Positions 12,016-44,049 of a stretch of DNA of 64,000 nucleotides are shown piece after piece (the first letter of the stretch is position 1; every line of letters starts with the position of its first letter). This DNA is from an uncultured Gemmatimonadota bacterium (GTDB lineage: Bacteria > JAAXHH01), in the NCBI GenBank assembly GCA_951812955.1, contig OX638340.1, forward strand, positions 1,760,001 to 1,824,000. Direction: 5' to 3'. The position numbers were made by a program, and so were the translations under genes. The notes below the pieces were generated by a model. It saw only the letters and a program-made list of their open reading frames with translations. It was not told the DNA's origin and did not search any database.

Positions 12016-14781
12016 ATGCAGAGCGCCAACCAAACACCTGAACAGAAGGCACGAGACATCATCGACGTCAGGCTGGAACGCGCTGGCTGGAACTTACAGT
12101 CGAAGAACGAGATCGACTTCAGCGCTGGTCGCGGTATTGCCGTTCGCGAGTATCCGACAGACATAGGCCCCGCGGATTACGTCCTTTTTGTCGACAAGAA
12201 ACCAACCGGCGTGGTTGAGGCCAAACCTGCCACGCAGGGTCAAAATATCACGACTGTCGAGGAGCAGTCATCTGGTTATGCCAATGCCAACCTCAAGTGG
12301 GTAGACAACAAAGAGCCACTCCCCTTTGTCTACGAATCTACCGGCGAGCTCACGAGGTTCACCGACAGTCGCGACCCGAATCCTCGCTCACGAGAAGTGT
12401 TCAGCTTCCATCGGCCAGAGACCATGGCGAACTGGCTCAGCCAGTCCAATCCACTGCGTGAGCGGCTCCAGGGGCTGCCGGAATTGGATGTCAAAGGACT
12501 CAGGGCGTGCCAGATAAACGCCATCGAGAACCTTGAAACATCCTTCAAAAAGGACCACCCTCGCGCCCTCATTCAGATGGCTACCGGCTCCGGTAAAACC
12601 TACACAGCCATTACCTCGATCTACCGACTGCTCAAGCACGCTGACGCCAGGCGAGTCCTCTTCCTTGTAGACACCAGAAACCTCGGCGAACAGGCCGAAC
12701 AGGAATTCATGGCCTACGTGCCCGGTGACGACAACCGCAAGTTCACCGAGCTGTACAACGTCCAGCGCCTCAAATCGTCCTACGTCGCCAACGACAGCCA
12801 GGTCTGCATCAGCACGATCCAGCGTATGTATTCGATTCTGAGGGACGAGGAACTGGATGACGCTACAGAGCAAATCAACCCGGCGGAAATGGTGCAGCCC
12901 AAAAAACCAGTGCCGGTTGCCTATAACGAGAAGATCCCACCGGAGTTCTTCGACTTCATCATCATCGACGAATGCCACCGCTCGATTTACAACCTGTGGC
13001 GGCAAGTCCTCGAGTATTTTGATGCCTATCTCATCGGCCTGACTGCTACGCCGGACAACCGAACCTATGGATTCTTCCGAAAGAACGTGGTCAGTGAATA
13101 CCCACATGAGGAAGCCGTCGCCGACGGCGTAAACGTCGGCAACGAAGTCTATGTCATCGACACGGAAAGGACAAAGCACGGCGGAAGACTCAAGGCGGAG
13201 CAGCAAGTTGAAAAACGCGAGCGCCTGACGCGGCTCAAACGCTGGGAGATTCAGGACGAGGACGTCACCTACACCGCCAAGGAACTCGACCGGTCCGTCG
13301 TCAACCCCGACCAGATCCGCACCGTCATCCGCACTTTCCGTGACAAACTGCCTGAGATATTCCCGGGCCGCGCCGAAGTCCCGAAGACGCTCGTTTTTGC
13401 AAAGACCGACAGCCATGCCGACGACGTCATCCAGACCGTGCGCGAAGAATTCGGCGAAAGTAACGAGTTCTGCAAGAAGGTCACTTACAAAACCGAAGAA
13501 GACCCGAAATCCGTCCTCGCCCAGTTCCGCAACGACTACTATCCGCGCATCGCGGTAACCGTGGATATGATCGCCACGGGTACCGACGTAAAGCCGCTCG
13601 AATGCCTGCTCTTCATGCGTGACGTGAGGAGCCGTAACTATTTCGAGCAGATGAAAGGTCGTGGCACCCGCACCCTCGACCATGACGATCTCAGACAGGT
13701 CTCGCCCTCCGCCGCCAGCGGAAAGACCCACTACGTGATCGTGGACACCGTAGGGGTCACGAAATCGCTCAAGACCGCCAGCCAGCCGCTCGTCACCAAG
13801 CCCTCCGTGCCACTCAGGGACCTCCTCATGGGGGTGATGATGGGCGCATGCGATGAAGACACGGTGAGTTCGCTCGCCGGGCGCCTCGCGCGGCTTGATC
13901 AACAACTCGATTCCGCCGATAAAGAGCGGATCAAGAAGCAAGCCGGCGGTATCGAACTCACTCAAATCGTTGGCGATCTACTTGCCGCCATCGACCCTGA
14001 TCGCATTCAGGAAAAGGCGCATGGAATCGAACCCGTGCCCGACGGTGTTGAACCACCACCTGCCGTTTGCGAGAAGGCCCGGGAGCAGCTGGTCCATGAC
14101 GCAGCCGACGTGTTCAACGGCGAACTGGTCGAATTGATCGACTCGATACGTCGCGACAAGGATCAGACGATCGACCATGACAGCTTGGACAAGGTAACCC
14201 GCGCCGAATGGGAAGGCGACACGCGCGAGAACGCCGAAGCCATAGCGCAGGACTTCCGGCAGTATCTCGAAGCGAATCGCGATGAGATCGAAGCGCTGAC
14301 CATCTTCTTCGCCCAACCGCACCGTCGCCGGGAGTTGACGTACGCCATGATTCGTGAAGTCTTCGATAGACTGAAGAGCGACCAGCCTCGACTGGTCCCA
14401 TTACGGGTCTGGCAGGCCTATGTTCTGCTCGACGAATACAAAGGCGGTCAGCCAATCAGCGAACTGACTGCGCTTGTAGCGTTGATTCGCCGTGCCTGTG
14501 GCATCGATGGAAAGCTTTCGCCCTATTCGGAAACCGTGCGCCGGAATTTCCGGGACTGGATCATGAAGCGACACAGCGGTAGCGGAGAGAAGTTCAACGA
14601 CGAGCAGATGGACTGGCTGCGAATGATCCGCGAACACATCATCACTTCGTTTCATCTTGAACGCGATGATCTGGATTTAGCACCATTCGATAGCAGGGGT
14701 GGAATGGGGCAGATGTACAAGCTCTTCGGTGACCAGATGGATGAATTGATTGGCGAGTTGAATGAGATACTGGCGGCGTAA
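12016..14781 (+). CDS. hsdR: Type I restriction enzyme R subunit (HsdR)
   Basis: 921 aa. N-terminal PD-(D/E)xK nuclease (ADYVLF...VVEAKP), helicase motif I MATGSGKTYTA, motif II FIIIDECHRS, typical HsdR length. Confidence 0.9.
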   Translation: MQSANQTPEQKARDIIDVRLERAGWNLQSKNEIDFSAGRGIAVREYPTDIGPADYVLFVDKKPTGVVEAKPATQGQNITTVEEQSSGYANANLKWVDNKEPLPFVYESTGELTRFTDSRDPNPRSREVFSFHRPETMANWLSQSNPLRERLQGLPELDVKGLRACQINAIENLETSFKKDHPRALIQMATGSGKTYTAITSIYRLLKHADARRVLFLVDTRNLGEQAEQEFMAYVPGDDNRKFTELYNVQRLKSSYVANDSQVCISTIQRMYSILRDEELDDATEQINPAEMVQPKKPVPVAYNEKIPPEFFDFIIIDECHRSIYNLWRQVLEYFDAYLIGLTATPDNRTYGFFRKNVVSEYPHEEAVADGVNVGNEVYVIDTERTKHGGRLKAEQQVEKRERLTRLKRWEIQDEDVTYTAKELDRSVVNPDQIRTVIRTFRDKLPEIFPGRAEVPKTLVFAKTDSHADDVIQTVREEFGESNEFCKKVTYKTEEDPKSVLAQFRNDYYPRIAVTVDMIATGTDVKPLECLLFMRDVRSRNYFEQMKGRGTRTLDHDDLRQVSPSAASGKTHYVIVDTVGVTKSLKTASQPLVTKPSVPLRDLLMGVMMGACDEDTVSSLAGRLARLDQQLDSADKERIKKQAGGIELTQIVGDLLAAIDPDRIQEKAHGIEPVPDGVEPPPAVCEKAREQLVHDAADVFNGELVELIDSIRRDKDQTIDHDSLDKVTRAEWEGDTRENAEAIAQDFRQYLEANRDEIEALTIFFAQPHRRRELTYAMIREVFDRLKSDQPRLVPLRVWQAYVLLDEYKGGQPISELTALVALIRRACGIDGKLSPYSETVRRNFRDWIMKRHSGSGEKFNDEQMDWLRMIREHIITSFHLERDDLDLAPFDSRGGMGQMYKLFGDQMDELIGELNEILAA

Positions 14782-14928: not shown

Positions 14929-15177
14929 TTGGAGCGTATCGTGCCCAAAGTCAGCGCCAAGCGACAGATAACGCTTCCGGCTGATCAGTGCCGTCTGGTC
15001 GGTATCGAGCCAGGCGACGAGTGCCAGAGTTTCGTGGCCGATGGCCGCATTACCATAGTCCGCCAGGAGCCCGGCAGCGCCTGGGGATGTCTGTCGCATC
15101 TCGAAGGGGATCAGACGGTTTCAGACGAGGAGTCGCGCCAGAACGCCATGGAGAGAAAGCGGGACCAAACGCCTTGA
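14929..15177 (+). CDS. vapB: AbrB/SpoVT-family antitoxin (VapB-like)
   Basis: SAKRQITLPADQCRLVGIEPGDE swapped-hairpin motif. Start more likely GTG at 14941 (GGAGCG RBS) than TTG at 14929. Stop overlaps the PIN gene start (TTGA). Confidence 0.65.
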   Translation: MERIVPKVSAKRQITLPADQCRLVGIEPGDECQSFVADGRITIVRQEPGSAWGCLSHLEGDQTVSDEESRQNAMERKRDQTP

Positions 15178-15575
15178 TCGCAATCGACACCAATGTCCTG
15201 CTGCGCTATCTCCTGAAAGATGATGAGGCGCAGGCTGAACGGGCGCGTAGCGTTATCGAGTGCGGCGAGCGCGTGCTCATTACGGACGTGGTACTGGCGG
15301 AAACGGTATGGACGTTAGCCGGCCGCAGATATCGCGCGAGCCGGACCGATCTGATCGATCTGGTCAACAAACTGCTGCAAGATGCCAACCTGTGCTTTGA
15401 GGATGACGAAGTGGTCTGGAGCGCCCTGCAGGCCTTTCGCAGGACGGAGGCGGACTTCGCCGACGCCCTGATCGTGTGCAAGGCCAGAAAGACGGTCCCC
15501 GCCGGCGACGAGTTGAGCGCGGTTTACACCTTCGATGATACCGCCTTGCAGTTGCCCGGTACCGCAGAGCCGTAG
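15174..15575 (+). CDS. vapC: PIN-domain toxin (VapC-like)
   Basis: TTG start overlapping the vapB stop. LIAIDTNVLLRYLL (first acidic residue of the PIN fold), later TDVVLAE, ~133 aa. Confidence 0.7.
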   Translation: MIAIDTNVLLRYLLKDDEAQAERARSVIECGERVLITDVVLAETVWTLAGRRYRASRTDLIDLVNKLLQDANLCFEDDEVVWSALQAFRRTEADFADALIVCKARKTVPAGDELSAVYTFDDTALQLPGTAEP

Positions 15576-15689: not shown

Positions 15690-17231
15690 GTGAATACTAT
15701 GATTCCAAATGGATGGGCCCATACATCGCTTGAAGCGGTGTGTCAGGTTCTCGATTCTAAGCGTATACCGTTAAATAACAGCGAACGTTCTCGACGTATC
15801 GCTGGTAAGTCCGCTGATGATCTTTACCCCTACTACGGCGCTACAGGTCAAGTCGGTGTAATTGACGATTTTATCTTTGATGGAGAACATGTTTTATTGG
15901 GCGAAGACGGTGCCCCATTTAATGATCCTTTCAAGGTAAAATCTTATCTGGTAGATGGGAAATTCTGGGTCAACAATCATGCTCATATTCTCAAATCAGC
16001 TATCCCAAACAGATATCTATGCCACTATCTCAATCAGATTGACTATTCTGGCTATGTAACAGGAACGACAAGACTGAAGCTTACTCAGACCGCATTAAAG
16101 CGAATTCCTGTTCTTGTTGCTCCCAAAGCCGAACAACACCGCATCGTCGCCAAAATCGAGGAACTGTTTTCCAAACTGGACAAGGGCATTGAGAGCCTGA
16201 AGGCGGCGAGGGCAAAGCTCGATGTCTATCGTCAGGCCGTGCTCAAGCACGCCTTCGAAGGCAAGCTCACGGCCCAGTGGCGCGAAGAGAACAAGGACAA
16301 GCTTGAGACACCCGAGCAATTACTCTCACGCATCAAAAAAGAGCGGGAAGCACGTTATAATAGGCAACTGCAGGAGTGGAAGGACGCCGTCAAGAAATGG
16401 GTGGAAGGCGGTAAGTCAGGAAAGAAGCCGACGAAACCTCCGAAGTTGGAGGAAATACCACACTTATCGATAACCGAAACAGTAACTCTTCCACCCCTCC
16501 CCGCTAATTGGGCTTATTTACACTTGGGGCTTGTGATCGACGAGCCCAAGTACGGTAGTTCGAAGAAATGTAACTACGACTACAAAGGCACAGGGGTTTT
16601 GAGAATACCTAATATCGTCCGAGGTGCAGTCGACACGTCCGATCTCAAAGGGACTCACTTCGAAGAGGACGAGAAACGCGCCTACGGTTTGAGGAGTGGT
16701 GAAATTCTCGTGATCCGATCAAACGGAAGTATCTCCGTAGTAGGTAGGTGCGCTCTAATCTCAAAAGCAGAAGAGCAGTATCTGTACGCTGGTTACCTTA
16801 TCCGCCTACGTAGTAACTTGACCGCGTTGCATCCCGAGTACCTTGTAGCTCTACTGTCAAGCCATCTGTTACGAACTCAAATCGAGCACAAAGCAAAATC
16901 GACTAGCGGTGTCAACAACATAAATTCGGGTGAAATCCAATCGCTCATCGTCCCTTTGTGCAGTCTCAGTGAGCAGGAAATAGTAGTCGAACGACTGTCT
17001 GCAAGTCTATCCTCGATTGACGCTATCAAGGGTGAGATCGACAATCAGCTACTACAAACCGAAGCCCTGCACCAATCCATCCTCAAGAAAGCATTCTCGG
17101 GCCAGCTCGTCCCGCAAGACCCGAATGACGAGCCCGCGTCAATTCTGCTTGAGCGCATCAATGGCGTAAAAGCTGCACTATCTCAAAACAACACACAGAG
17201 AAGACGTAGACACGAGAAGGCAACGGCATGA
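15690..17231 (+). CDS. hsdS: Type I restriction-modification specificity subunit (HsdS), two target-recognition domains
   Basis: Two variable TRDs separated by conserved helical spacers (PKAEQHRIVAKIEELFSKLD and SLSEQEIVVERLSASLSSID) and C-terminal AFSGQL. Lower GC within the TRDs. Confidence 0.9.
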   Translation: MNTMIPNGWAHTSLEAVCQVLDSKRIPLNNSERSRRIAGKSADDLYPYYGATGQVGVIDDFIFDGEHVLLGEDGAPFNDPFKVKSYLVDGKFWVNNHAHILKSAIPNRYLCHYLNQIDYSGYVTGTTRLKLTQTALKRIPVLVAPKAEQHRIVAKIEELFSKLDKGIESLKAARAKLDVYRQAVLKHAFEGKLTAQWREENKDKLETPEQLLSRIKKEREARYNRQLQEWKDAVKKWVEGGKSGKKPTKPPKLEEIPHLSITETVTLPPLPANWAYLHLGLVIDEPKYGSSKKCNYDYKGTGVLRIPNIVRGAVDTSDLKGTHFEEDEKRAYGLRSGEILVIRSNGSISVVGRCALISKAEEQYLYAGYLIRLRSNLTALHPEYLVALLSSHLLRTQIEHKAKSTSGVNNINSGEIQSLIVPLCSLSEQEIVVERLSASLSSIDAIKGEIDNQLLQTEALHQSILKKAFSGQLVPQDPNDEPASILLERINGVKAALSQNNTQRRRRHEKATA

Positions 17232-17983
17232 CCGGCAAACTTGCCATCAACATCGATAACCTGCTGCGCCAGCGTGCCATCGAAGAGGCGCTGGTGAACG
17301 CCATCGACCATCGCTCATACGAGGAGCGGGAGCCGGTTGAAGTTCGGATCACCCGCGATGAGTTGCTGGTCCTGAGTTATCCCGGGGCGGACCGCTCCAT
17401 CCGTATGGACGACTTCAAGCAGGGGCAGGCCGTGAGCAGGCGCTACCGGAACCGGCGAATTGGTGAGTTTCTGAAGGAACTCGACCTCGCCGAGGCCTGC
17501 TCAACCGGGGTGCCGAAGATTTTCACGGCCATGCAGCAGAACGGCTCACCGGAACCCATCTTCGAAAGCGACGAGAACCGGACCTGGTTTCGCGTGCGCC
17601 TGCCGGTGCATGAACGGGCATTACTTGCCACGACCGACCAGGATACCATACATGATACCCAACATGATAACTCATTGATAAATAAAAGGAAAAGTCACGG
17701 TACCCAACACGGTACCCAACATGATACCCAACATGATATCGACCAAGTCGAGCAACTGGTGGCTGTGCTCACTGGAGAGATGAGCCGAGCTAGTATCCAG
17801 GCAGGATTGGAACTCAAAGATCGGCCCCATTTCATCGAATCGTATCTAAAGCCTGCCCTGGAGGCCAAGTTGATTGAAATGACCCTCCCGGACAAACCCA
17901 CCAGTCGCCACCAGCGCTATCGCCTAACTGCCGCTGGAAAGGCTTTAGCTGAGCAAATCAAACGAGAGAACACCGCCAAATGA
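17228..17983 (+). CDS. HATPase_c_4 (RecG-like C-terminal / Schlafen-like ATPase core) plus C-terminal winged-HTH protein, lacking the usual N-terminal AlbA_2 domain
   Basis: VNAIDHRSYEEREPVEVRITRDELLVLSYPGA...SRRYRNRRIGEFLKELDLAEACSTGVPKIFTAMQQNGSPEPIFESDENRTWFRVRLP matches the HATPase_c_4 pattern. 4-bp overlap with hsdS stop and hsdM start. Internal TQHD low-complexity repeats (17641-17738). Confidence 0.6.
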   Translation: MTGKLAINIDNLLRQRAIEEALVNAIDHRSYEEREPVEVRITRDELLVLSYPGADRSIRMDDFKQGQAVSRRYRNRRIGEFLKELDLAEACSTGVPKIFTAMQQNGSPEPIFESDENRTWFRVRLPVHERALLATTDQDTIHDTQHDNSLINKRKSHGTQHGTQHDTQHDIDQVEQLVAVLTGEMSRASIQAGLELKDRPHFIESYLKPALEAKLIEMTLPDKPTSRHQRYRLTAAGKALAEQIKRENTAK

Positions 17984-19467
17984 ACACCGCTCCCATCGTA
18001 TCCAAAGTCTGGAGTTTCTGCAACACCCTGCGCGACGACGGGGTGAGCTATGGCGATTACCTGGAACAACTCACCTATCTGATATTTCTGAAGATGGCAG
18101 ACGAGTACGCCAAACCGCCGTACAGTCGGGACGTCGGCATCCCGGTCGAATTCAACTGGCAGAGCCTGAGATCGAAGAACGGCGCGGAACTCGAAGGCCA
18201 CTACGTCGCGCTGCTTCGAGCCTTCGGCACCAGGACGGGCATGCTGGGCCAAGTCTTTACCAGGGCCCAGAACAAGATCCAGGATCCGGCAAAGCTGTTC
18301 CGCCTCATCGCCATGGTGGACGACACCGAATGGGTCACCATGGGCGCCGACATAAAAGGGGATATCTACGAAGGGCTCCTGGAGAAGAACGCCGAAGATA
18401 CCAAGACCGGCGCGGGCCAGTATTTCACGCCGCGTGCTCTCATCCGGGCCATGGTCGAGTGCGTACGGCCCGAACCGGGAATGCTCATCGCTGACCCGGC
18501 CTGCGGTACGGGCGGTTTCTTTCTCGCTGCATACGACTTCATCACCAACCAGGACAATTTCAGGTTAGACAAGGATCAAAAAGCGTTCCTGAAACACGAG
18601 GCGTTTCACGGCAATGAAATCGTCCCCAATACACGCCGTCTTTGCCTGATGAACATGTTCCTGCACAATATCGGTGAAATCGACGGCGGCGTCCCGATAT
18701 CGCCCAACGACGCGCTGGTGGCCGATGCCGGCAAGCGTTACGACTATGTGCTGGCGAATCCGCCCTTCGGCAAGAAAAGTTCCATGAGTTTCACGAACGA
18801 GGAAGGCGAACAGGAAACCGACGACCTGACCTACAACCGGCAGGATTTCTGGGCGACGACCTCGAACAAACAGCTGAATTTCGTGCAGCACATCCGCACG
18901 ATGCTCAAGACCACCGGCCGCGCTGCTGTCGTCGTTCCCGACAATGTACTGTTCGAAGGCGGGGCCGGTGAGACGATCCGCAAAAAGCTGCTGGACAACA
19001 CGGACTTGCACACCATCCTGCGCCTGCCGACGGGCGTGTTCTACGCGCAGGGCGTCAAGGCCAATGTGATCTTCTTCGACAATCACGAAGCCAGCCCGAA
19101 TCCCTGGACGAAGCAGGTCTGGTACTACGACTACCGCACCAATATCCACCATACGCTGAAGAAGAAACCACTGCGCTTCGAGGACCTGTCGGATTTCATC
19201 AACTGCTACAACCCGCAGAATCGCCACCAGCGCAAGGCGACCTGGGACGAAAACGATGCACCGGAAGGCCGTTGGAGGAGTTACAGCTACGAGGAGATAA
19301 TCGCGCGCGACAAGACCAGTCTCGACATCTTCTGGCTCAAGGACAAAAGCCTGACGGACCTGGACAACCTGCCCGAACCTGATGACCTTGCCGAAGAGAT
19401 CATAGAGAACCTGGAGGCAGGTCTCAACAGCTTTCGCGAGGTGCTGGCTGGATTGGGGAGGCAGTAG
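17980..19467 (+). CDS. hsdM: Type I restriction-modification DNA methyltransferase subunit (HsdM), N6-adenine
   Basis: Motif I DPACGTGGFFL, motif IV NPPFG, N-terminal HsdM_N-like region, 495 aa. Confidence 0.92.
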   Translation: MNTAPIVSKVWSFCNTLRDDGVSYGDYLEQLTYLIFLKMADEYAKPPYSRDVGIPVEFNWQSLRSKNGAELEGHYVALLRAFGTRTGMLGQVFTRAQNKIQDPAKLFRLIAMVDDTEWVTMGADIKGDIYEGLLEKNAEDTKTGAGQYFTPRALIRAMVECVRPEPGMLIADPACGTGGFFLAAYDFITNQDNFRLDKDQKAFLKHEAFHGNEIVPNTRRLCLMNMFLHNIGEIDGGVPISPNDALVADAGKRYDYVLANPPFGKKSSMSFTNEEGEQETDDLTYNRQDFWATTSNKQLNFVQHIRTMLKTTGRAAVVVPDNVLFEGGAGETIRKKLLDNTDLHTILRLPTGVFYAQGVKANVIFFDNHEASPNPWTKQVWYYDYRTNIHHTLKKKPLRFEDLSDFINCYNPQNRHQRKATWDENDAPEGRWRSYSYEEIIARDKTSLDIFWLKDKSLTDLDNLPEPDDLAEEIIENLEAGLNSFREVLAGLGRQ

Positions 19468-19608
19468 GCGGTAGATGAACTTGTTAGGGACTCACTTACC
19501 GCGTATTACGATTATGTTCCGTTTATTTTCACTGTATTGAAGTTACTCCGAAAAACCAGTTAGGTTCGATTCATTTTCCATCGCAAGTATGTAAATCACT
19601 GAATTACT

Positions 19609-21777
19609 ATGAATAGTAACTGCAAAACTGAAGTTCGATCCGAATCTGAAATAGTCACCGATTTAGAGAGTTTGAGCCAGGAAAAAGGGTACATCTATTC
19701 CTTCTGTCGAATGGTTGATGAATACCTGTGGTTGAAACCCAGCGAACCCGAAATCCCTGATTGGCACAGTCAATTAAACATACGTGAGTTAACTTTCTTA
19801 TTAGGGTTAATGGTCAAGTATCAATTGACCATATCTGATTCTCCGACTGAACGGGAGTCTGACCTACATATCGATAAGACCAATGAGTTGTTTCATGAAC
19901 TTCATCAAACTCATGCTTTTCCGAAAACAAAGGAAGTAAACGCCGCCCAAGTGAACTTAGAAGATTGGGAATCGGGGTTGAAAAACACCTATACCGACTG
20001 GATCAAAAGCGGTAAAGGTATCGTCGAGCCGGTTTTTTATGGTGAAGAAGGTGCATACGATTTCCAGTTCCTCAAAATGGCAGCATGGAGGTACAAACTT
20101 GATAATCAGTGGATAAAGTCGAACATAGGTATGGATGTTGATACTTTAACTGATATCGCAGGTAAGATTAAACGACTTACCGAATATCGCGCCAATGATG
20201 TAACCAGGACGTCAGACTTCAGAGATTCATGCTTTCGGTTGATATCAGTCTTCTTAATTAAGCCAGATGGCGTTCCTGGCGCTAATAGAGAAGAAATCGA
20301 AGTCTTTCTTGAAACCTTTTCTGTTGAACCACGGGACGGAGTTAATCAGAACCTTAACACGATTGGTGAATACAACACGGCAGACTCGCACCCCATTATT
20401 AAGATTAACAATGAACTTTATTTCATTCCCATCTACTACAACCTAGCAAAATCCATCTACGAGAACCCCTTCTACTGGATTCTCAAAGACAGTGATTACA
20501 GACAAACAGGACTTCAGAACAGGGGTGATGTTACAGAAGAAATAGTATTCGAACTGTTACGACGAGTTTTTGGTATAGACAACGTTTTTCGCAGGGTAAA
20601 AATAAAACGTGGAAACAGAGACATAACGGATATCGACGTTCTTGCAGTATGTGGGAGTAAAGCTGTCATTGTACAGGTGAAATCTAAGAGACTTACGGTG
20701 CTGTCGAAAGGTGGTGATGGCAAGAGCATAGAGAAGGATTTCAAACAAGCTGTTCAGGATGCTTACACCCAAGCGTTATTGTCGAGAAACTTCCTGCTAG
20801 AGACAGATGAAACACTGACGGTTAATGAAGAAAGGCTAATGCAGGTCAAAGGGAACATCGATGATGCCTATATAATCTGCGCTACTGGTGATCATTATCC
20901 TGCAATTACTATTCAGACAAAGTCATACCTCAAAAAGAAGGCAACCGACCCTTACCCAGTTGTACTAAGCGTTTTTGACCTTGATACTATATCGTTTTAC
21001 CTCAGAGAACCGTATGATTTCATATACTACGTTCGTCAACGCACTATACATGCGGGTCACTTCGAGGCTGATTCAGAAATGGCCTTTCTTGGTTTTCATC
21101 TAAACAAAAAACTATTTCCCACAGATGGATATGATATCACGATTATCCCACAATATTATGCATATCTCATCGATATTAGTTTTCCAGTCCTAAAGGGTGA
21201 GCATCCTATTTCGGATGCAGCATACAAGGTATTCCACAAGTGGAAAAACAACGATTTTGATGAGCTAGTTAATGAAATCAAAGTTAGAAATACCGGTCAT
21301 CCACAACTGACAGATTTGATTTTCTTTTTGTTCGATTTAGCAGGATCAGTAGCCGACAAGATTTTCGAAATCTTCGGCGAAATCAAACGAACCACTCGTG
21401 GTGACCTAAAGCCTCACGATGCTACAATTCCAATAGACCAAGCCGGGAAAGGTATAACACTGTTCTGCTACCCTTCGACGTTAGAACTTAGTGAGACAAT
21501 AATCCAAGATCAGTTTCGAGGCTTTGCAGCTGCTCGGAAATACAAAAGCAAAGCTAATGAATGGTTAGCGCTCGCATCATCCGCACAAAGTTCAAATCTG
21601 TTTGACTGTCTCTGGTATAGTAAAGAAGTATGGTGTTATGATGAGAGTTTCGAGCGTCTATCAAAACACATGATTAAACAAGGACATCCCATTCGTACTG
21701 ACGGACGGAAAATAGGTAGAAATTCACCCTGCCCTTGTGGAAGTGGATTGAAGTTTAAAAAGTGCCACGGAAAATAA
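19609..21777 (+). CDS. Large hypothetical protein with a NERD-like PD-(D/E)xK nuclease core and C-terminal SEC-C zinc-binding motif; candidate defence nuclease
   Basis: 722 aa, very AT-rich. Central EEIVFELLRRVFG...RDITDIDVLAVCGSKAVIVQVKSKR fits E...D-x-D...Q-x-K as in the NERD consensus (EIDHIVI...GIFVIETKN). The extreme C-terminus NSPCPCGSGLKFKKCHGK is a SEC-C motif. Confidence 0.5.
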   Translation: MNSNCKTEVRSESEIVTDLESLSQEKGYIYSFCRMVDEYLWLKPSEPEIPDWHSQLNIRELTFLLGLMVKYQLTISDSPTERESDLHIDKTNELFHELHQTHAFPKTKEVNAAQVNLEDWESGLKNTYTDWIKSGKGIVEPVFYGEEGAYDFQFLKMAAWRYKLDNQWIKSNIGMDVDTLTDIAGKIKRLTEYRANDVTRTSDFRDSCFRLISVFLIKPDGVPGANREEIEVFLETFSVEPRDGVNQNLNTIGEYNTADSHPIIKINNELYFIPIYYNLAKSIYENPFYWILKDSDYRQTGLQNRGDVTEEIVFELLRRVFGIDNVFRRVKIKRGNRDITDIDVLAVCGSKAVIVQVKSKRLTVLSKGGDGKSIEKDFKQAVQDAYTQALLSRNFLLETDETLTVNEERLMQVKGNIDDAYIICATGDHYPAITIQTKSYLKKKATDPYPVVLSVFDLDTISFYLREPYDFIYYVRQRTIHAGHFEADSEMAFLGFHLNKKLFPTDGYDITIIPQYYAYLIDISFPVLKGEHPISDAAYKVFHKWKNNDFDELVNEIKVRNTGHPQLTDLIFFLFDLAGSVADKIFEIFGEIKRTTRGDLKPHDATIPIDQAGKGITLFCYPSTLELSETIIQDQFRGFAAARKYKSKANEWLALASSAQSSNLFDCLWYSKEVWCYDESFERLSKHMIKQGHPIRTDGRKIGRNSPCPCGSGLKFKKCHGK

Positions 21778-21847
21778 CATCCGATCCTGAAACTTGATCT
21801 TGCAAGGGTCTGTCACGGAAAGGTTCGGTCATAGAGTATTAAGCTTA

Positions 21848-22918
21848 TTATTCTTCTTGTTCTTCGGGATATGGGAGGACTGGGGCTGTTGTCCAGCCTT
21901 CACGTTCAGGTGAATTATGTCCTGTACATATAGTTCTGCCCTCTGTCGAAACTACTTTCGCCCCACGGTGTATACAAGCCCGAATAACTGCTTTTCTAGG
22001 GTGATCCTCGTCTTCTTTAGACGCACTTATAATTGCGTTAAAATGTTCGTTTCCCTCTTCTTGCTTCTCTGGCAGTCGCTTACCCAGCAATCTGTCAAGT
22101 ATCTCCGTTGATAAATTGCGTCGTGATCCGTGGTGCGGGACCTGAAAATGGTCAATTCCTGGAAGTGTCAGTCCTACTGATGGCGCATAATCCAGTGCCT
22201 CGGTAAGTGCACCTCGTCCTGCATCCGCAGTCAGTAATACCTTTTTCTCGCAAAGATTAGCATACTGGATCACACTCATCTCATTTTCAAAGCTAGTTTC
22301 TTCCGGTGAAAACGTTTCTTCACCCCATGCAGATCTTATAAACGAAACAACACTTTTTACGAAAGCACGTCCATGTCCTAACAATGATTGAGCTGTCCCT
22401 TCCGGAGTTCTATCGGATTCAACAATGAGATTCAGATACCTTTCTTTTGATGGTGCAAGGACCGTGAACTCTCCGATTTGTTCTCCTTGAAATGGTGCCA
22501 ATATCGGTATCTCTCGTGCCTTAGCAATCTCTTCAAGTTCGGCAATGTTTGGGTATATTTCCTTTAGCCTACGAACCAGATTCTCCACATTTGTAAAACG
22601 AGCAAACCGGTCAATTAACTCATCTGCATATAGCCATGGTCGTAACATCCACAACTCTGAGACGCTAAATGCTTCGAGGACTTTTCGTAGCCCGCCTGTA
22701 TGGTCGCCATCGGAATGACTGGCTATAACGGCATCAATCGTGCTAGGGTCATCATAATACTTTTTGATATGCTCAATTACAATGTCTCCAGAATCCTGAA
22801 ATCCTCCATCAGTTACGTGAACTCTCTTGACACCAGCTATGGAATACCGAAGTGGTATTGCATCCCCGCTCTTGCTTGACTTTACGTCAAGGAAATCAAT
22901 TTCAAAAAAGTATGACAT
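21848..22918 (-). CDS. MBL-fold metallo-hydrolase, ComEC-like lactamase domain
   Basis: ASHSDGDHTGG (HxHxDH metal-binding motif). N-terminus FFEIDFLDVKSSKSGDAI resembles the start of the ComEC/Rec2 lactamase domain (FLDVGQGDA). Later HFQVPHHGS. AT-rich. Confidence 0.6.
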   Translation of the reverse strand: MSYFFEIDFLDVKSSKSGDAIPLRYSIAGVKRVHVTDGGFQDSGDIVIEHIKKYYDDPSTIDAVIASHSDGDHTGGLRKVLEAFSVSELWMLRPWLYADELIDRFARFTNVENLVRRLKEIYPNIAELEEIAKAREIPILAPFQGEQIGEFTVLAPSKERYLNLIVESDRTPEGTAQSLLGHGRAFVKSVVSFIRSAWGEETFSPEETSFENEMSVIQYANLCEKKVLLTADAGRGALTEALDYAPSVGLTLPGIDHFQVPHHGSRRNLSTEILDRLLGKRLPEKQEEGNEHFNAIISASKEDEDHPRKAVIRACIHRGAKVVSTEGRTICTGHNSPEREGWTTAPVLPYPEEQEE

Positions 22919-22921
22919 ATG

Positions 22922-23422
22922 CTACTCTTGCTCCTTGATTTTAGCGTTTCTTACGCGCTTAGCTACATATTGAGTCTGTTTTCTATAAGAGAATAAAAAT
23001 ATCAACAATAACCCCGCCAAAATTATTAAAACTATTTCATCATCACTTATAGACCACAAATGCTTCAACTCGTCAAAGATTTTGAGGAAAACTAACACAA
23101 TCACTAGCGAACTCAGCGTACGATACATGTTGTTCTGTTCTGACAAGACCTCGATCTTTGAATCCACTTCTACTGCTTCCAGATAATCCTTGTAGTCTGC
23201 GAACCGAACAAATTTGATCTTTTTGAGTAGGGGTTCCAATATCAACGATCCAATCCTGCTAATGACCAACCCTGCCATGTAGTATATAAACACTCCTATG
23301 ATCCAGTCCTTATGGACTAATGAAAATGAGGTGATTTGTTCTCCCAGACCAGCAAATAGAACTCCAGGAAGTAGATAGTTAAAAATGTTATATGACGACA
23401 GCTTTTCAATTACAGTTTTCAT
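22922..23422 (-). CDS. Small hydrophobic membrane protein (about 4 TM segments), translationally coupled to the MBL gene
   Basis: Hydrophobic stretches (IFNYLLPGVLFAGL; WIIGVFIYYMAGLVISRIGSLIL; LSSLVIVLVFLKIF; IVLIILAGLLLIFLF). Stop is 3 bp from the MBL gene start. Confidence 0.5.
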   Translation of the reverse strand: MKTVIEKLSSYNIFNYLLPGVLFAGLGEQITSFSLVHKDWIIGVFIYYMAGLVISRIGSLILEPLLKKIKFVRFADYKDYLEAVEVDSKIEVLSEQNNMYRTLSSLVIVLVFLKIFDELKHLWSISDDEIVLIILAGLLLIFLFSYRKQTQYVAKRVRNAKIKEQE

Positions 23423-24268
23423 CAGGTTTGCCTTTTTGTTTTATTGCCTAAAACATCCTCCATAACAACAAAATCTAATGTACACAACTAATCGTCGTAC
23501 TAGCTAGTAAGTGAAACTTCCACTCCTATCCTGCTTTAAAATGGTATGTCAACACCAGAAGTGATTTTTGTACAGCACCTAATTGGGTAGTGATATGTTT
23601 TTAAATCTCGTTGAATGTAACCCTAATGTATCGACAAATCCCGATTATTTACAAGTAATTAACCCGTAGATTGCCTCTTTAAACAGATTGACATGGGAGG
23701 TTCTACATGGTAACCTGAACACGTCAACGATTCCAATTCGGCTCGAGCCGGGTATTCTGCTGAATATAGAACCCACAAAGGTAGATTTGCAAAACCTCCC
23801 GCAATCTTTAGGTGGAGCGTTGACACTGCCCGTCACCAACAAACAGATTGGTGCTAAAGCTGGGGTTCGCCATGAGGGTTTTCGGTACCATAGTACTGTG
23901 GGTGTTAGCACTGTAGGAACTTAGATGTTCATAGTTGCCATGTTTTATTCCAATTCGGTTTCCTAGGAGCTAGAGCAGGACAATCTCGATTTAGTAGCAA
24001 AGGAACATCAGGTCTCTGTTTTGGAGAATACCCTTGAGAAGTTGAGGGCTCAAACCAACTTGGTGGATGAACTGACGGCCGTTCAGATAGAAAACATCAA
24101 ACTGATGGATAAGTTGATCAAAGCGAACAACGACTAGATTAATATGGTAAACAAGCATTTCATAAAGCATAGGTACCGTCCCATTGACCGGGGAGGGTTA
24201 GATTGCAACTAAGTCTTAGGATTGGTCGCCAGAGACTGAACGGTTCGGTGCCCTGATTGCGTGGTTGA

Positions 24269-24400
24269 ATGGTCAAGTTCGAGGAAATTGACAAGCAGTT
24301 CGACCGGGTGGATGTACCACTGGACGTGCTGGTGCTGAACATGCGTGAACTCAGAACCGATGTGACAGATGGTCTTAGAAAACACGCAATAGAAAGATAG
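24269..24400 (+). CDS. Small hypothetical ORF (43 aa)
   Basis: MVKFEEIDKQFDRVDVPLDVLVLNMRELRTDVTDGLRKHAIER; weak RBS; first of a same-strand series of short ORFs. Confidence 0.2.
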   Translation: MVKFEEIDKQFDRVDVPLDVLVLNMRELRTDVTDGLRKHAIER

Positions 24401-24413
24401 GAGGGAGTGAAGA

Positions 24414-24566
24414 ATGGAAAATGACGGACAACTGGAACAGATTATCGAACTGTTGATGGACTTAAATTCCCACATGGCAGACCTTAAAGAACTCATCAAG
24501 GTTTCAAACAATCAACTGGATATCATCAAAAGTTACTTGGACAGCATAGATCGTAATTCAGCATAG
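24414..24566 (+). CDS. Small hypothetical protein (50 aa), helical
   Basis: AGGAGGGAG RBS 6 nt upstream. MENDGQLEQIIELLMDLNSHMADLKELIKVSNNQLDIIKSYLDSIDRNSA. Confidence 0.3.
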   Translation: MENDGQLEQIIELLMDLNSHMADLKELIKVSNNQLDIIKSYLDSIDRNSA

Positions 24567-24574
24567 GAGTCAAT

Positions 24575-24751
24575 ATGTCGTTGGGAGGATATACGTATAT
24601 AGCGGACACTGAGACATTGAAATCAAACTACGAGTTATTGCAGAAAAGCCTTATTCAACTTATCAACGAGACGAATAGTGCTGAAATAATGCTCAAGGCG
24701 ATTTCGTTAATGATCGAACTAGATTCCACCTATACCAAGGGAAATAGGTGA
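24575..24751 (+). CDS. Small hypothetical protein (58 aa)
   Basis: AGGAG RBS. MSLGGYTYIADTETLKSNYELLQKSLIQLINETNSAEIMLKAISLMIELDSTYTKGNR. Starts 9 nt after the previous stop. Confidence 0.3.
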   Translation: MSLGGYTYIADTETLKSNYELLQKSLIQLINETNSAEIMLKAISLMIELDSTYTKGNR

Positions 24752-24761
24752 AGGGGTCTTT

Positions 24762-24878
24762 ATGCCCACAGGACCGAAGGGCGAGAAGCGGCCTCGTGAC
24801 TTCGTCGGATCGGTCATTACAGTCGGCAAGATCACCACTGGTTTAATAGAAGAGACCAGAGTAAGCCCTGCCAAGTAA
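24762..24878 (+). CDS. Small hypothetical ORF (38 aa)
   Basis: GAAGGGG RBS. MPTGPKGEKRPRDFVGSVITVGKITTGLIEETRVSPAK. Confidence 0.2.
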   Translation: MPTGPKGEKRPRDFVGSVITVGKITTGLIEETRVSPAK

Positions 24879-24995
24879 AATGCCGGAACTAGGCCAGGTC
24901 GATACGACTGACCGCGTCATGCCGGACCGAGATCGGCTGGTATGCCGGCGAATGTGCGGTGGGGAGGTCAAAGTACCAGATAGCGGAGGATTGAC

Positions 24996-25151
24996 ATGAA
25001 GCAACTGGAGCAGAAGGATATTAAGATCGCATTGGATAGGCTCAATGCCGAAATAGAACAAAAGCAACGCACGGTGGACCATTATCAAGGTGAATTGGAT
25101 AGCCTTAAAAACGTTGCGGAGCTTTTGGAGTCTCTTCTGGGATCACAGTAA
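24996..25151 (+). CDS. Small hypothetical protein (51 aa), coiled-coil-like
   Basis: GGAGGA RBS. MKQLEQKDIKIALDRLNAEIEQKQRTVDHYQGELDSLKNVAELLESLLGSQ. Confidence 0.3.
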   Translation: MKQLEQKDIKIALDRLNAEIEQKQRTVDHYQGELDSLKNVAELLESLLGSQ

Positions 25152-25453
25152 ACTGATACTGGTGGAAGTCAGTATGGATTTTGGAAGAATTTAAGATCGT
25201 ACTCGAAATCGTAAGGACATTGCTTGGCCCATGATTGAAAGGAGGTCATGATGGACAGGTACAAAGGAATGTATCCGATTCCAATAAATAGAGAAATCAT
25301 TGAGACCAAGAGGAAGCATTGGGAAGTCCTTCTATAAGCAGACCGAGTTCTCGAACAGGCTTCCAAGCAAATTGGTCTCGACACGTCCGAAGAAACATAT
25401 TAAAAATAAGAGAAATGCTTAACACAACGGGTTGGTTTCGTTATACTTAGTAT

Positions 25454-26191
25454 ATGAAAAGGATCATCCGAGACAAGCTACTGTTAATGCTGAACATGCT
25501 GTTAGAAGTGTCTTCGATAAGTTCTATCGCTAGGATCGTCGGGGTCAACTACATCACCGTTCAGAAACTCATGCTGGATTCCGTTCAGGTGTGCAAAATC
25601 TTCCACCATAAAACCGTAATGGATGAAGACGCCAAGCAAATACAATGCGACAAATATGGAACTTCGTTTAGAACAAGGTCCAATGCGGTCTGGACGTAGA
25701 CGGCCATCCGGCAAGACACCAAGTTTATTCTGGCTTTCAAGGACGGAGACAGAACCAACGAAACCGCCAAGACGCTATTCGACGATCTGATGACGCGGCT
25801 GCGAAACAAGATGTGGATCCGGACGGACAGGCTTCCTTCCTACTCAGGGGCGATATGGGACTCGTTTTTCGTGTCTGCCACACATCAATTAGCGGGCGCC
25901 GCCGCAGTCTAATACTCCAACATAGAGCGCCAGAATCTCAACATGCACATGGGAGTGTGAAGGTACACCCGAGCGACCGATGCGTTCTCTAAGAAGATCG
26001 ACTATCTATACAACCTGCTCTCATTGTACTTCGTCTTCTACAACTTTATCCGAAAGCATCTGCTACTTGGCATGACTCTCGCTCAGGGAATCGGCCTTTC
26101 TGGTGAAACCCGCGACCTGGGTAAGATACTTGATGTGGTGGACGAAGCAGCCCCACTTCCGAACAGGCCGAAGACGTACAGAAAGTGCTAG
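25454..26191 (+). mobile_element. Decayed IS1-family transposase (InsA-like HTH ORF plus frameshifted InsB-like C-terminal fragments), IS remnant
   Basis: 25454..25699 encodes an InsA-like HTH (SISSIARIVGVNYITVQKLM, cf. IS1 InsA ...ATARIMGVGLNTILRHL). Downstream frames give ...KTLFDDLMTRLRNKMWIRTDRLPSYSGAI... and ...ERQNLNMHMGV*RYTRATDAFSKKIDYLYNLLSLYFVFYNFIRKHLLLGMTLAQG..., the conserved IS1-family transposase C-terminus. Reading frame is broken by stops and shifts. Confidence 0.6.
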
Positions 26192-26235
26192 GAACATCAT
26201 TCATTCTTTTGTCACAAGGAGTATTCACTGTGGAT

Positions 26236-26550
26236 ATGCGTAAACTTACGGTTAAAATATCTGATCCCAATGAGGAAGATTCATCGGGGTTTTTAGTTGA
26301 GGCTGTACCGATTGGGGCAAGCCTCGTCTTGACATCAGTAGGATACATCAGATTGAGGGCAGTGAGTGAAAGAACGGATGTATACGGTCTCGCTATTTTG
26401 GAGTTAATTCCTTCTGCAAAGTTGAATGGCTTGTATTACAGGATCAATATCTCTGACGGTAGCGCGAGTTACTCACGCTTTATCATAATGCCGAACGAAG
26501 ACGTCAATCTGCATGATTTAATGTTGTATGAAGAGATGCCGGAAGGCTGA
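26236..26550 (+). CDS. Hypothetical protein (about 104 aa)
   Basis: ORF 26185..26550, probably starting at ATG 26236 or GTG 26230 behind an AAGGAG RBS. No recognisable family. Confidence 0.3.
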   Translation: MRKLTVKISDPNEEDSSGFLVEAVPIGASLVLTSVGYIRLRAVSERTDVYGLAILELIPSAKLNGLYYRINISDGSASYSRFIIMPNEDVNLHDLMLYEEMPEG

Positions 26551-26756
26551 AGGCTAAATTACCGATAACATACAATCCTTAGTACTACCTTAATTGAATG
26601 ATAGCGGTACCTAGAGTTGCTTGTAATCGGGCTCTCACAATCTCGTTTAAAAATTGGTCAACAATCAATGTGCTCTTAACACAGTGCAATTATACACCGC
26701 ACGTTCATCGAGAAACCACATTACTTGATACAACCTCGACTACACGATAAGGCTTT

Positions 26757-42786: not shown

Positions 42787-44049
42787 CTAGAGTTTGTAAC
42801 AGCCGGCATTGATTTGACGAGTACCGCCTATCGACCCTTCATCCTCTGCACCAGAATCTTCGTTATCAACTTCCTCCGCCGCGTTAACGTCAACTACGCC
42901 CTCATTCACCATCATCCTCGCTTCCACCGCGCCTTTCTGATCCGGGTTGCAACTTATCACGCCCCAGTTGTAAACTCCCGCGAGATGATCATACAGGACC
43001 TGGGCCTCGACATCTTCTTCGATGGTAACGACGCCGGTATTGTACAATGTGGCGGTCCCTTCGAGAAAGTCGAATCGAGACTTCTGGAGCGTAACCGTGG
43101 TTTGCACGACCCACAGCGTCCCATCATAGAACACCACCCTGGTTTTCAGTGTGTCGCATTTTCTGGACAGGACTTCACTCAGGCTATCCGGGCACAGGAC
43201 CGTACCGATGCATATGAGACCGGCGAGGGCTCTGTCCAGTGAATCCTGATCTACTTCCTCGTGTATGGTGACGTTTTCGGTTGCGAAGATGCTCCTGTCC
43301 TTCCATGTCCGTATGTTTGTGGAGTTCAGAGACAGCTCGTGTTCCACGATCACAAAGCCCTCAGGAATCGCCCAGGTCAGCGGTGTGCCGGCCCTGGGAT
43401 CGAACCTGGATGCCAGCGTGGACAGGTTTTTCTCGCAGCAGAAGACTTTTCCCCTGACGTTGAGTGTCTTGATTTTTTGATCGATCAGTTTATCCGGCAC
43501 GGCCTGCACGATCTGCAGATCACCCGTGATGACCATGTCCGAGTCGTTGGCCATCGAAGCAAGGTAGACTTCATCCAGCAGGAGGTCGCCGACTACCAGA
43601 CGGGCGGAAGACCGGTAAGATGAATGACTTCCCGGGTTTTCCGTCAACCTGTTCATGATCGCTCCGGCTACGTGTTCAGGATAGAGGATGCTCCCTGAAT
43701 TGAGGATTCCGAACCACGAACTTTCCACGTCTTCAGCCTTGACATCAGGTTCCAGGATTATGCTGCCCGAGTTCATGATGAATAGCGGGGCTCCTTCGCC
43801 AGAGAGCGCTTCCCGGCCCATGACCTCCCTCGAATGAACGGTCATCAGTCTGACCTCTGTAGGAACTTCGATAACACTTCCCATATTGATGGTAAACATG
43901 GTCATAAGAGGCCTGGTTGCAGCGGATACCAGTACGTTCCCGGCGTTGACCTGCTTGATCCTCGATGCCGTCTGTTCCGTTGTTTCACGCATGTCCAGTG
44001 TACCGCAATTGATGCTGACCGAACGGGGGGTGCTTTTTTCGAGATTCAT
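42787..44049 (-). CDS. Hypothetical repeat-containing protein (possible beta-helix, DUF4097/bactofilin-like), co-oriented downstream of the ECF sigma factor
   Basis: 420 aa, no TM helix. Recurring short hydrophobic/Gly/Ser units (INMGSVIEV, IMNSGSIILEP, ILNSGSILYPE). Acidic tail. Confidence 0.3.
   Translation of the reverse strand: MNLEKSTPRSVSINCGTLDMRETTEQTASRIKQVNAGNVLVSAATRPLMTMFTINMGSVIEVPTEVRLMTVHSREVMGREALSGEGAPLFIMNSGSIILEPDVKAEDVESSWFGILNSGSILYPEHVAGAIMNRLTENPGSHSSYRSSARLVVGDLLLDEVYLASMANDSDMVITGDLQIVQAVPDKLIDQKIKTLNVRGKVFCCEKNLSTLASRFDPRAGTPLTWAIPEGFVIVEHELSLNSTNIRTWKDRSIFATENVTIHEEVDQDSLDRALAGLICIGTVLCPDSLSEVLSRKCDTLKTRVVFYDGTLWVVQTTVTLQKSRFDFLEGTATLYNTGVVTIEEDVEAQVLYDHLAGVYNWGVISCNPDQKGAVEARMMVNEGVVDVNAAEEVDNEDSGAEDEGSIGGTRQINAGCYKL

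Follow-up and report, generated by a model that had tools for sequence, protein, structure and literature searches.

Is the short gene lodged between hsdS and hsdM of a type I restriction-modification (R-M) operon a naturally minimal one, or what is left of a longer one? The question is raised by a 251-codon open reading frame (ORF) in a stretch of 64,000 nucleotides of contig OX638340.1 (positions 1,760,001 to 1,824,000; assembly GCA_951812955.1, an uncultured Gemmatimonadota bacterium), hereafter called the window, in whose coordinates positions are given. The original prediction, made from the letters of the window, described an N-terminally truncated protein of the Schlafen-type AlbA_2/HATPase_c_4 family with a C-terminal winged helix-turn-helix (wHTH) domain. 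The family assignment stands. The ORF is real, lies between hsdS and hsdM as identified by the Pfam domains of these neighbours, overlaps the hsdS stop codon in a shared ATGA, and contains all the peptides quoted for it. The profile search proposed as a check recovered HATPase_c_4 (PF13749) and Fic-like_C (PF21247), but no match to SLFN_AlbA_2 (PF04326), in the 251-aa protein; its relatives carry SLFN_AlbA_2. The truncation, in turn, proved to be of another kind. When aligned to full-length homologues, which we call X, the gene exhibits an internal in-frame deletion of 864 nt between direct repeats, and its start codon is kept. From the sequence comparisons described below, we consider it almost certain that the gene is an internal in-frame deletion allele of X that has lost its RNase.

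Residues 1-16 of the window protein align with the N-terminus of AlbA_2-containing homologues, after which the alignment jumps to AIEEALVNA. In the homologues the N-terminus MTGKLPINIDHLLRQR runs on into TIEGERIEYKAGWNP, whereas in the window MTGKLAINIDNLLRQR goes straight to AIEEALVNAI.HRSYEE. With its first 16-19 residues (MTGKLAINIDNLLRQRAIE) the protein retains the genuine N-terminus of the full-length family, and the ORF does not start directly at HATPase_c_4, as had been thought, since its residues 1-19 are homologous to that N-terminus. The same picture was obtained with tblastn, using as query the X protein of the closest full-length relative (L004, OZ245326.1, 540 aa), to which the retained part of the window gene is 88% identical. 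Residues 1-19 of L004 X matched positions 17228-17284 (89% identity) and residues 305-540 matched 17276-17980 (88% identity), the two segments overlapping at 17276-17284. No further significant match to L004 X was found in the 64 kb. The original prediction that there is no room for an AlbA_2 domain was borne out, and no DNA coding for one was detected by this search elsewhere in the window. A second window ORF (42787..44049) was considered as a family member and dismissed, having a weak tblastn match (E 1.1) and no Pfam domain.

The junction lies on a repeat. L004 carries a 12-nt direct repeat, GCGCCATCGAAG, at codons 16-20, with a second copy 864 nt downstream in the same frame; the left breakpoint reads CGC GCC ATC GAA GGC and the right one GGC GCC ATC GAA GAG. 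The window keeps one GCGCCATCGAAG-type copy, exactly at the junction (its core GCCATCGAAG is located in Table 1). The repeats lie 864 nt apart in 56 of 60 full-length loci, and their in-register identity varies from 0 to 12 nt across loci, being longest in L004 (12) and in L028 and L011 (10). The left copy encodes A-I-E within the RNase catalytic motif and the right one A-I-E where the GHKL N-box helix begins; the need to encode Ile-Glu at both sites is what accounts for the repeat. Slippage in replication, or recombination between short homologies, at these in-register 10-12-nt repeats, (GC)GCCATCGAAG, would have removed the 864 nt.

Table 1. Features of the window referred to in the text.
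Feature	Position	Strand	Remarks
Schlafen-GHKL-wHTH ('Schlatpase-HTH') gene remnant	17228..17983	+	251 aa; relatives about 540 aa
N-terminal 16 codons and original start (MTGKLAINIDNLLRQR)	17228..17275	+	aligns to residues 1-16 of full-length homologues (MTGKLPINIDHLLRQR)
Deletion junction, one surviving repeat copy GCCATCGAAG (codons A-I-E)	17276..17285	+	from comparison with L004
HATPase_c_4 (PF13749) match	17333..17596	+	aa 36-123, Pfam E 7e-10
Linker of imperfect 12-nt repeats	17642..17738	+	protein DT(I/Q)H ... GTQH GTQH DTQH D
Fic-like_C (PF21247) wHTH, intact	17741..17929	+	aa 172-234, Pfam E 3e-26; AlphaFold2 pLDDT >90
hsdR, apparently intact	12016..14781	+	921 aa; Pfam ResIII, EcoEI_R_C, HSDR_N, Helicase_C
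Toxin-antitoxin pair in the hsdR/hsdS gap	14929..15575	+	small ORF 14929..15177, PIN toxin about 15165..15575
hsdS, specificity subunit	15690..17231	+	513 aa; Pfam Methylase_S
hsdM, methyltransferase subunit	17980..19467	+	495 aa; Pfam N6_Mtase, HsdM_N
NERD and SEC-C-motif protein	19609..21777	+	722 aa; within low-GC tract
Metallo-beta-lactamase-fold protein	21848..22918	-	356 aa; within low-GC tract
Probable membrane protein	22922..23422	-	166 aa; within low-GC tract

The 864 nt correspond to 288 codons and comprise the whole Schlafen domain with its Ex4ExK motif, together with the stretch of about 155 residues that separates AlbA_2 from the N-box. At the motif itself the window reads AIEEALVNA, the second Glu and the Lys being deleted, and Ex4(E/D)xK is destroyed. 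This motif is the catalytic motif of prokaryotic Schlafen RNases, and its mutation abolishes the toxicity and the defence activity of RorSlfn5 (PMC13056530). The AlbA_2 domain, earlier described as a DNA-binding domain, is the Schlafen RNase effector (PMC13056530). The hope that a minimal variant would reveal which part of these proteins is required is likewise not fulfilled: the effector is gone, so the allele gives no information on effector activity. The R-M system would have lost its Schlafen backup effector, with the wHTH and the linker left intact.

The full-length family was delineated by a genome scan with one genome per species, which yielded 80 loci, or 83 with 3 metagenome contigs. 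With a single exception, in which the match begins at residue 11, all 80 genome loci match the window protein only from residue 17. In about 69 of the 83 loci the homologue is uninterrupted and can be matched to practically the full 540-aa L004 protein, and the intact homologues mostly measure 512-567 aa from the conserved start. In L004, X comprises SLFN_AlbA_2 at residues 19-148, HATPase_c_4 at 325-412 and Fic-like_C at 461-523; PF04326 is also found at residues 19-148 in L010. The catalytic motif takes the form EGER[IV]EYK (Ex4ExK) and occurs in 58 of the 60 full-length proteins. The claim that such genes are passengers of type I R-M operons was upheld: among the 80 genome loci, hsdM directly follows X in 48 and hsdS directly precedes it in 37, and 28 have both together with hsdR.

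The window operon is itself, by sequence, a predicted type I R-M system. Its HsdR, HsdM and HsdS are uninterrupted, as judged by Pfam domains and by alignments to relatives; HsdR is 85% identical to that of L004 across residues 6-921 and HsdM 94% identical, within ranges of 65-88% for HsdR and 75-94% for HsdM among the relatives. The window gene occupies the same position as X, has the same overlapping start and stop codons, and shows high identity at both gene ends. On this sequence evidence it is the orthologue, in the form of a deletion allele, of the gene of the hsdS-X-hsdM operon. The hosts of related loci are labelled Latescibacterota, Rhodothermales, Gemmatimonadota, Binatia, Entotheonella, Pseudomonadales, Spirochaetia, Nitrospirales, Chloroflexota and others, and metagenome-assembled genomes (MAGs) with the order hsdR-hsdS-X-hsdM belong, by label, to at least ten phyla or classes. 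Judging from these sequences, the operon is evidently horizontally mobile and has undergone extensive recent transfer. Many MAG names among the operon carriers point to sponge or marine symbionts.

The same deletion was found a second time. In L084, a metagenome contig (ENA ERZ26693581) with 3x long-read coverage, protein P0086 (3261-3911) has the identical junction, R-T-I-E directly followed by E-A-L-V-N-A, and lies directly after hsdS. Its C-terminus is frameshifted, possibly by a low-coverage read error. The retained DNA of L084 is 96% identical to the full-length L028, L027 and L011, against 89.5% to the window, and the nearest relatives of the window (92-93% DNA identity) are also full-length. 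As each deletion allele is closest to full-length genes, the sequences imply that the identical deletion arose at least twice. The nearest relatives of both deletion alleles are also those with the longest repeats (9-12 nt). No match to the window junction was found in JGI metagenomes with two degenerate junction patterns. A third candidate, L061 (SYLRDSTLEEALVNA), was rejected as a junction case: homology between its upstream sequence and the N-terminus is not convincing, and L061 was counted as a 5' truncation.

In the window, the TGA of the ORF shares an ATGA with the hsdM start codon (ATG at 17980), as its own start does with the hsdS stop. An in-frame deletion that leaves both overlaps in place would keep translation running from hsdS through the remnant to hsdM, with no polar effect, and the lesion is presumably tolerated in an otherwise intact operon because translation still reaches hsdM. 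The locus would be a clean natural case in which a toxic effector was lost in frame, by microhomology, from a translationally coupled type I R-M operon. It also indicates that such an operon can exist without the Schlafen domain.

Other shortened forms of X were encountered. At least 9 more internal in-frame deletions, each distinct, leave the N-terminus in place and have scattered breakpoints; the forms concerned are P0002/3/5/18 (L001, and L002 6001-7308), P0021, P0028, P0059, P0067, P0095, P0108/9, P0116 and P0120. L001 lacks 105 codons (residues 184-288), and ATCC occurs twice at its junction. P0116 (L085, L086; ERIEF followed by PYAAIEEA) was found in two distinct JGI samples, in neither case within an R-M context. 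Overall, about 14 of the 83 loci carry a disrupted X, whether through a frameshift, loss of the 5' end or a deletion within the gene.

A much larger extent of decay was suggested by the lengths retrieved with a word-index protein search, in which the 251-aa query returned no relative of about 540 aa among its best 120 matches. We rejected a massive decay of the family on this basis, because the search favours targets similar in length to the query, and we retained the roughly 69 intact loci out of 83 as the better estimate. Indeed, a 60-aa junction peptide used as query returned only 8 short fragments, all below 105 aa; the length spectrum of the word-index search is therefore a search bias and not biology.

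A different type of rearrangement was observed at about 8700-10200 in L064, L065 and L079 (also in L051, L053 and L073), where a full-length X is followed by a 5' hsdM fragment and later by an intact hsdM. In L065 and L079, the ORF after the hsdM fragment (242-246 aa) has an unrelated N-terminus joined to an X-like C-terminal part of 180 aa. These tandem scars suggest cassette replacement by recombination in the highly conserved core of X.

What the deletion leaves of the ATPase was assessed from predicted structures. The PF13749 match covers the C-terminal two thirds of the GHKL/Bergerat ATP-binding fold, and the N-box (E20, N24) is located at the junction, just upstream of this match. In the AlphaFold2 model of the window protein, the GHKL segment has a predicted local distance difference test score (pLDDT) of 40-50, whereas in the model of P0007, a relative in which the upstream region is kept, it reaches mostly 60-90 at equal alignment depth; the wHTH exceeds 90 in both models. 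The P0007 model contains a helix (111-127) and two strands (130-133 and 142-145), then the N-box helix (149-161). Together with the segment that follows, these elements make up the helices and the roughly seven strands expected of a Bergerat fold, an expectation described for RzAgo (bioRxiv 10.64898/2026.05.29.728809). From the models we infer that the deletion removes one helix and two strands of the seven-stranded fold, and would thereby cut into the ATPase fold instead of falling at a domain boundary. With one helix and two strands lost, what remains of the ATPase is unlikely to form a stable, competent domain. A Foldseek search with the P0007 model gave 3LMM as top match (E 2e-6), the other best match being the wHTH of 4RGL. 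A scan of the window protein against NCBIfam returned nothing meaningful.

All these elements combined, we judge it quite likely that the window gene is an ordinary decayed, effector-dead deletion allele of a known gene. On the part of this statement that concerns the remnant alone our confidence is lower, although we still lean towards a remnant without remaining function; most likely it is non-functional, or at most a DNA-binding leftover. The annotation is corrected accordingly, from a new minimal architecture to an effector-less deletion allele of a Schlafen-GHKL-wHTH accessory gene. The minor new point is the recurrence of a deletion at conserved in-register repeats; the rest is ordinary gene decay in a defence island.

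Several observations weigh against this interpretation. The ORF is fully open, with no stop and no frameshift across its 251 codons, and the GHKL Mg/phosphate ligands E20 and N24 are kept in the remnant. The pairwise ratio of nonsynonymous to synonymous rates (dN/dS) against relatives is about 0.15-0.2, a value that mixes the time before and after the deletion; on the window branch, the proportion of nonsynonymous to synonymous changes is lower than neutrality would predict, and the Tajima relative-rate test gave no significant difference. The deletion may be recent. Comparable short forms occur in other lineages, P0116 for example, and mini forms could persist. As to the effector that was lost, a role of the HisKinase-HTH subclass as a tRNase in abortive infection is drawn by analogy, and HisKinase fusions assayed in E. 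coli conferred no defence (PMC13056530).

The counts of substitutions lean the other way. Polarised by branch, they amount to 12 nonsynonymous and 10-11 synonymous changes in the window, compared with 5-6 and 11-15 in L004 (p 0.14-0.2). At the 105 columns that are at least 95% conserved, the window protein deviates 4 times (Y27D, R91C, R100T, R233L), against a mean of 1.2 and a maximum of 4 in the others. Selection on the remnant thus shows a trend toward relaxation, without significance in any of the tests.

The alternative that survives best, which we nevertheless consider unlikely, is a functional mini-protein in which the linker and the wHTH, perhaps together with some of the GHKL segment, bind DNA or the R-M complex, the loss of the nuclease having been selected. 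It might act as an operon regulator, as an adaptor, or as a dominant-negative protein poisoning the oligomerisation of an incoming full-length Schlatpase. The open ORF and the non-neutral dN/dS speak for it, as do the wHTH predicted at a pLDDT above 90 and the recurrence of independent short forms combining the N-terminus with the C-terminal half: L084/P0086, P0116 (from its two samples), P0059 and P0095. The occurrence of the linker and wHTH joined to Fic in 4RGL further suggests an autonomous module. Conversely, the allele stands alone in its cluster, with a single sequence on a single contig, and the two degenerate patterns found no match to its junction in the JGI metagenomes; the breakpoints of the other variants are scattered and do not converge on one domain boundary, and these variants came from a search biased to short targets. 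In addition, the GHKL segment, deprived of a helix and two strands, is poorly modelled, and Y27D, R91C and R100T are radical changes at positions otherwise more than 95% conserved.

An extension of the mini-protein idea is more speculative still, and we regard it as improbable. The in-register A-I-E repeats would constitute a built-in, recurrent in-frame 'escape hatch', and the GHKL remnant with the wHTH would be kept as a regulator or dominant-negative guard. If true, the hatch would allow lineages to dispose of a costly suicide RNase while the translation of hsdM stays unaffected.

The view of the original prediction, an N-terminally truncated minimal HATPase_c_4-wHTH protein whose TQHD tract serves as a slippage-prone contingency locus, now appears very improbable. 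Its domain content was correctly stated, AlbA_2 is indeed not found in the window, and the imperfect 12-nt repeat linker that it described is present: a pattern search recovered five ACCCAACATGAT copies with at most 2 mismatches at 17645-17737, in blocks of 2 and 3 that score 42 and 62 in Tandem Repeats Finder. Length does vary between species. Over 64 aligned sequences (the window and 63 family members) the linker spans 18-71 aa, with 1-12 copies of [D/G/E]T-x-[Q/H], and L015 has as many as twelve perfect tandem DTQQ copies. Two findings described above speak against this view, the homology of the 16-19 N-terminal residues to the start of the full-length protein and the position of the junction on a direct repeat; besides, the linker repeats number only 2 + 3 imperfect copies and the window linker has the most common length in the family, 41 aa. 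Moreover, the 12-nt unit lies inside the coding region and changes in its number stay in frame, so the linker cannot be an on/off switch as phase variation would demand. By these sequence comparisons it is a family-wide, evolutionarily elastic element and not an on/off contingency switch.

Scarcely credible, finally, is an assembly artefact in which 864 nt were collapsed and the true gene is full-length: the window allele occurs on one contig only and is known from assembled sequence alone, but a collapse in a 3.8-Mb contig would call for a repeat far longer than 10-12 nt, the junction is precise and preserves the frame, and an independent contig from another sample has the identical junction. 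An exact, recurrent junction on direct repeats therefore points to slippage or short-homology recombination and not to assembly collapse.

The architecture of X is already published under three names, pSlfn-HisKinase-HTH, Schlafen RNase with minimal histidine kinase and wHTH, and Schlatpase. The pSlfn-HisKinase-HTH class represents 19% of prokaryotic Schlafens (PMC13056530). The second form has been proposed as a backup suicidal effector within BREX loci (PMC12839542). Schlatpase modules occur stand-alone or fused to type I HsdS in Poribacteria, and the Schlatpase tRNase is activated by ATP-driven oligomerisation via its GHKL domain (bioRxiv 10.64898/2026.05.29.728809). The full-length orthologues such as L004 share this architecture and, here again, lie inside a defence operon. 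The window allele, on the other hand, lacks the Schlafen domain, the catalytic motif and the N-terminal part of GHKL, and keeps 16-19 N-terminal residues, the remaining GHKL, the linker and the wHTH. PADLOC matched only prokaryotic Argonaute (pAgo) and pAgo-associated models containing a fused Schlatpase, a result that gives no evidence for an Argonaute system at the locus.

Full-length X combines a Schlafen/AlbA_2 RNase (Ex4ExK), a GHKL (PF13749) ATPase, a [D/G]T-x-[Q/H] linker and a Fic-like_C wHTH, and would be a latent tRNA-cleaving abortive-infection effector. By analogy with known systems, its role is most plausibly that of a latent tRNase backing up R-M.

The closest functional parallel within an R-M locus is the anticodon nuclease PrrC, whose gene sits in the EcoprrI type I R-M locus; RloC is comparable. 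PrrC is thought to stay latent under the R-M complex and to be released once a phage inhibits restriction. Like X, PrrC is an RNA-targeting suicide effector encoded between type I hsd genes. The two are nevertheless from unrelated protein families, the PrrC/ABC-ATPase domain being absent from X, and no PrrC-related match was found in the Pfam, NCBIfam or PADLOC scans. Any physical or regulatory link between X and the Hsd proteins is presumed by analogy and, in the window, the effector domain is deleted. The wider hsdR-hsdS-X-hsdM family is a more useful lead than the window allele, being suited to asking whether R-M-embedded Schlafens act like PrrC.

Matches to proteins of known structure complete this comparison. 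Residues 270-402 of L004 X match DIP2311 of Corynebacterium diphtheriae (PDB 3LMM), and residues 19-119 match 2KYY, the AlbA_2 domain of a 'RecG-related' protein, in both cases with about 15% identity; 3LMM and 2KYY are structural-genomics entries without assigned function. The C-terminal Fic-like_C wHTH of the Fic protein Dde_2494 (PDB 4RGL) is matched by the L004 homologue, in an alignment that also covers residues 257-270 of 4RGL, a DQVTDQV repeat located just upstream of the wHTH. The attached enzyme is a Fic AMPylase in 4RGL, as opposed to Schlafen/GHKL in X. As a repeat precedes the wHTH in 4RGL too, the linker and the wHTH seem, from these alignments, to form one module shared by different R-M- or defence-associated enzymes.

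Around the operon, further genes were identified in the window (Table 1). Between hsdR and hsdS, a PIN domain was detected for 15165-15572 (Pfam E 2e-11). The small ORF that precedes it has no Pfam match and, from its position and sequence, would encode an AbrB/VapB-like antitoxin. In most related loci the gap between hsdR and hsdS is too small for such a pair. L084 has a PhdYeFM-PIN pair placed after X, unlike the window pair. Directly 3' of hsdM, a low-GC tract extends over 19500-26700 (39-47% GC, against 55-64% in the flanks) and looks like separately acquired defence-island cargo.

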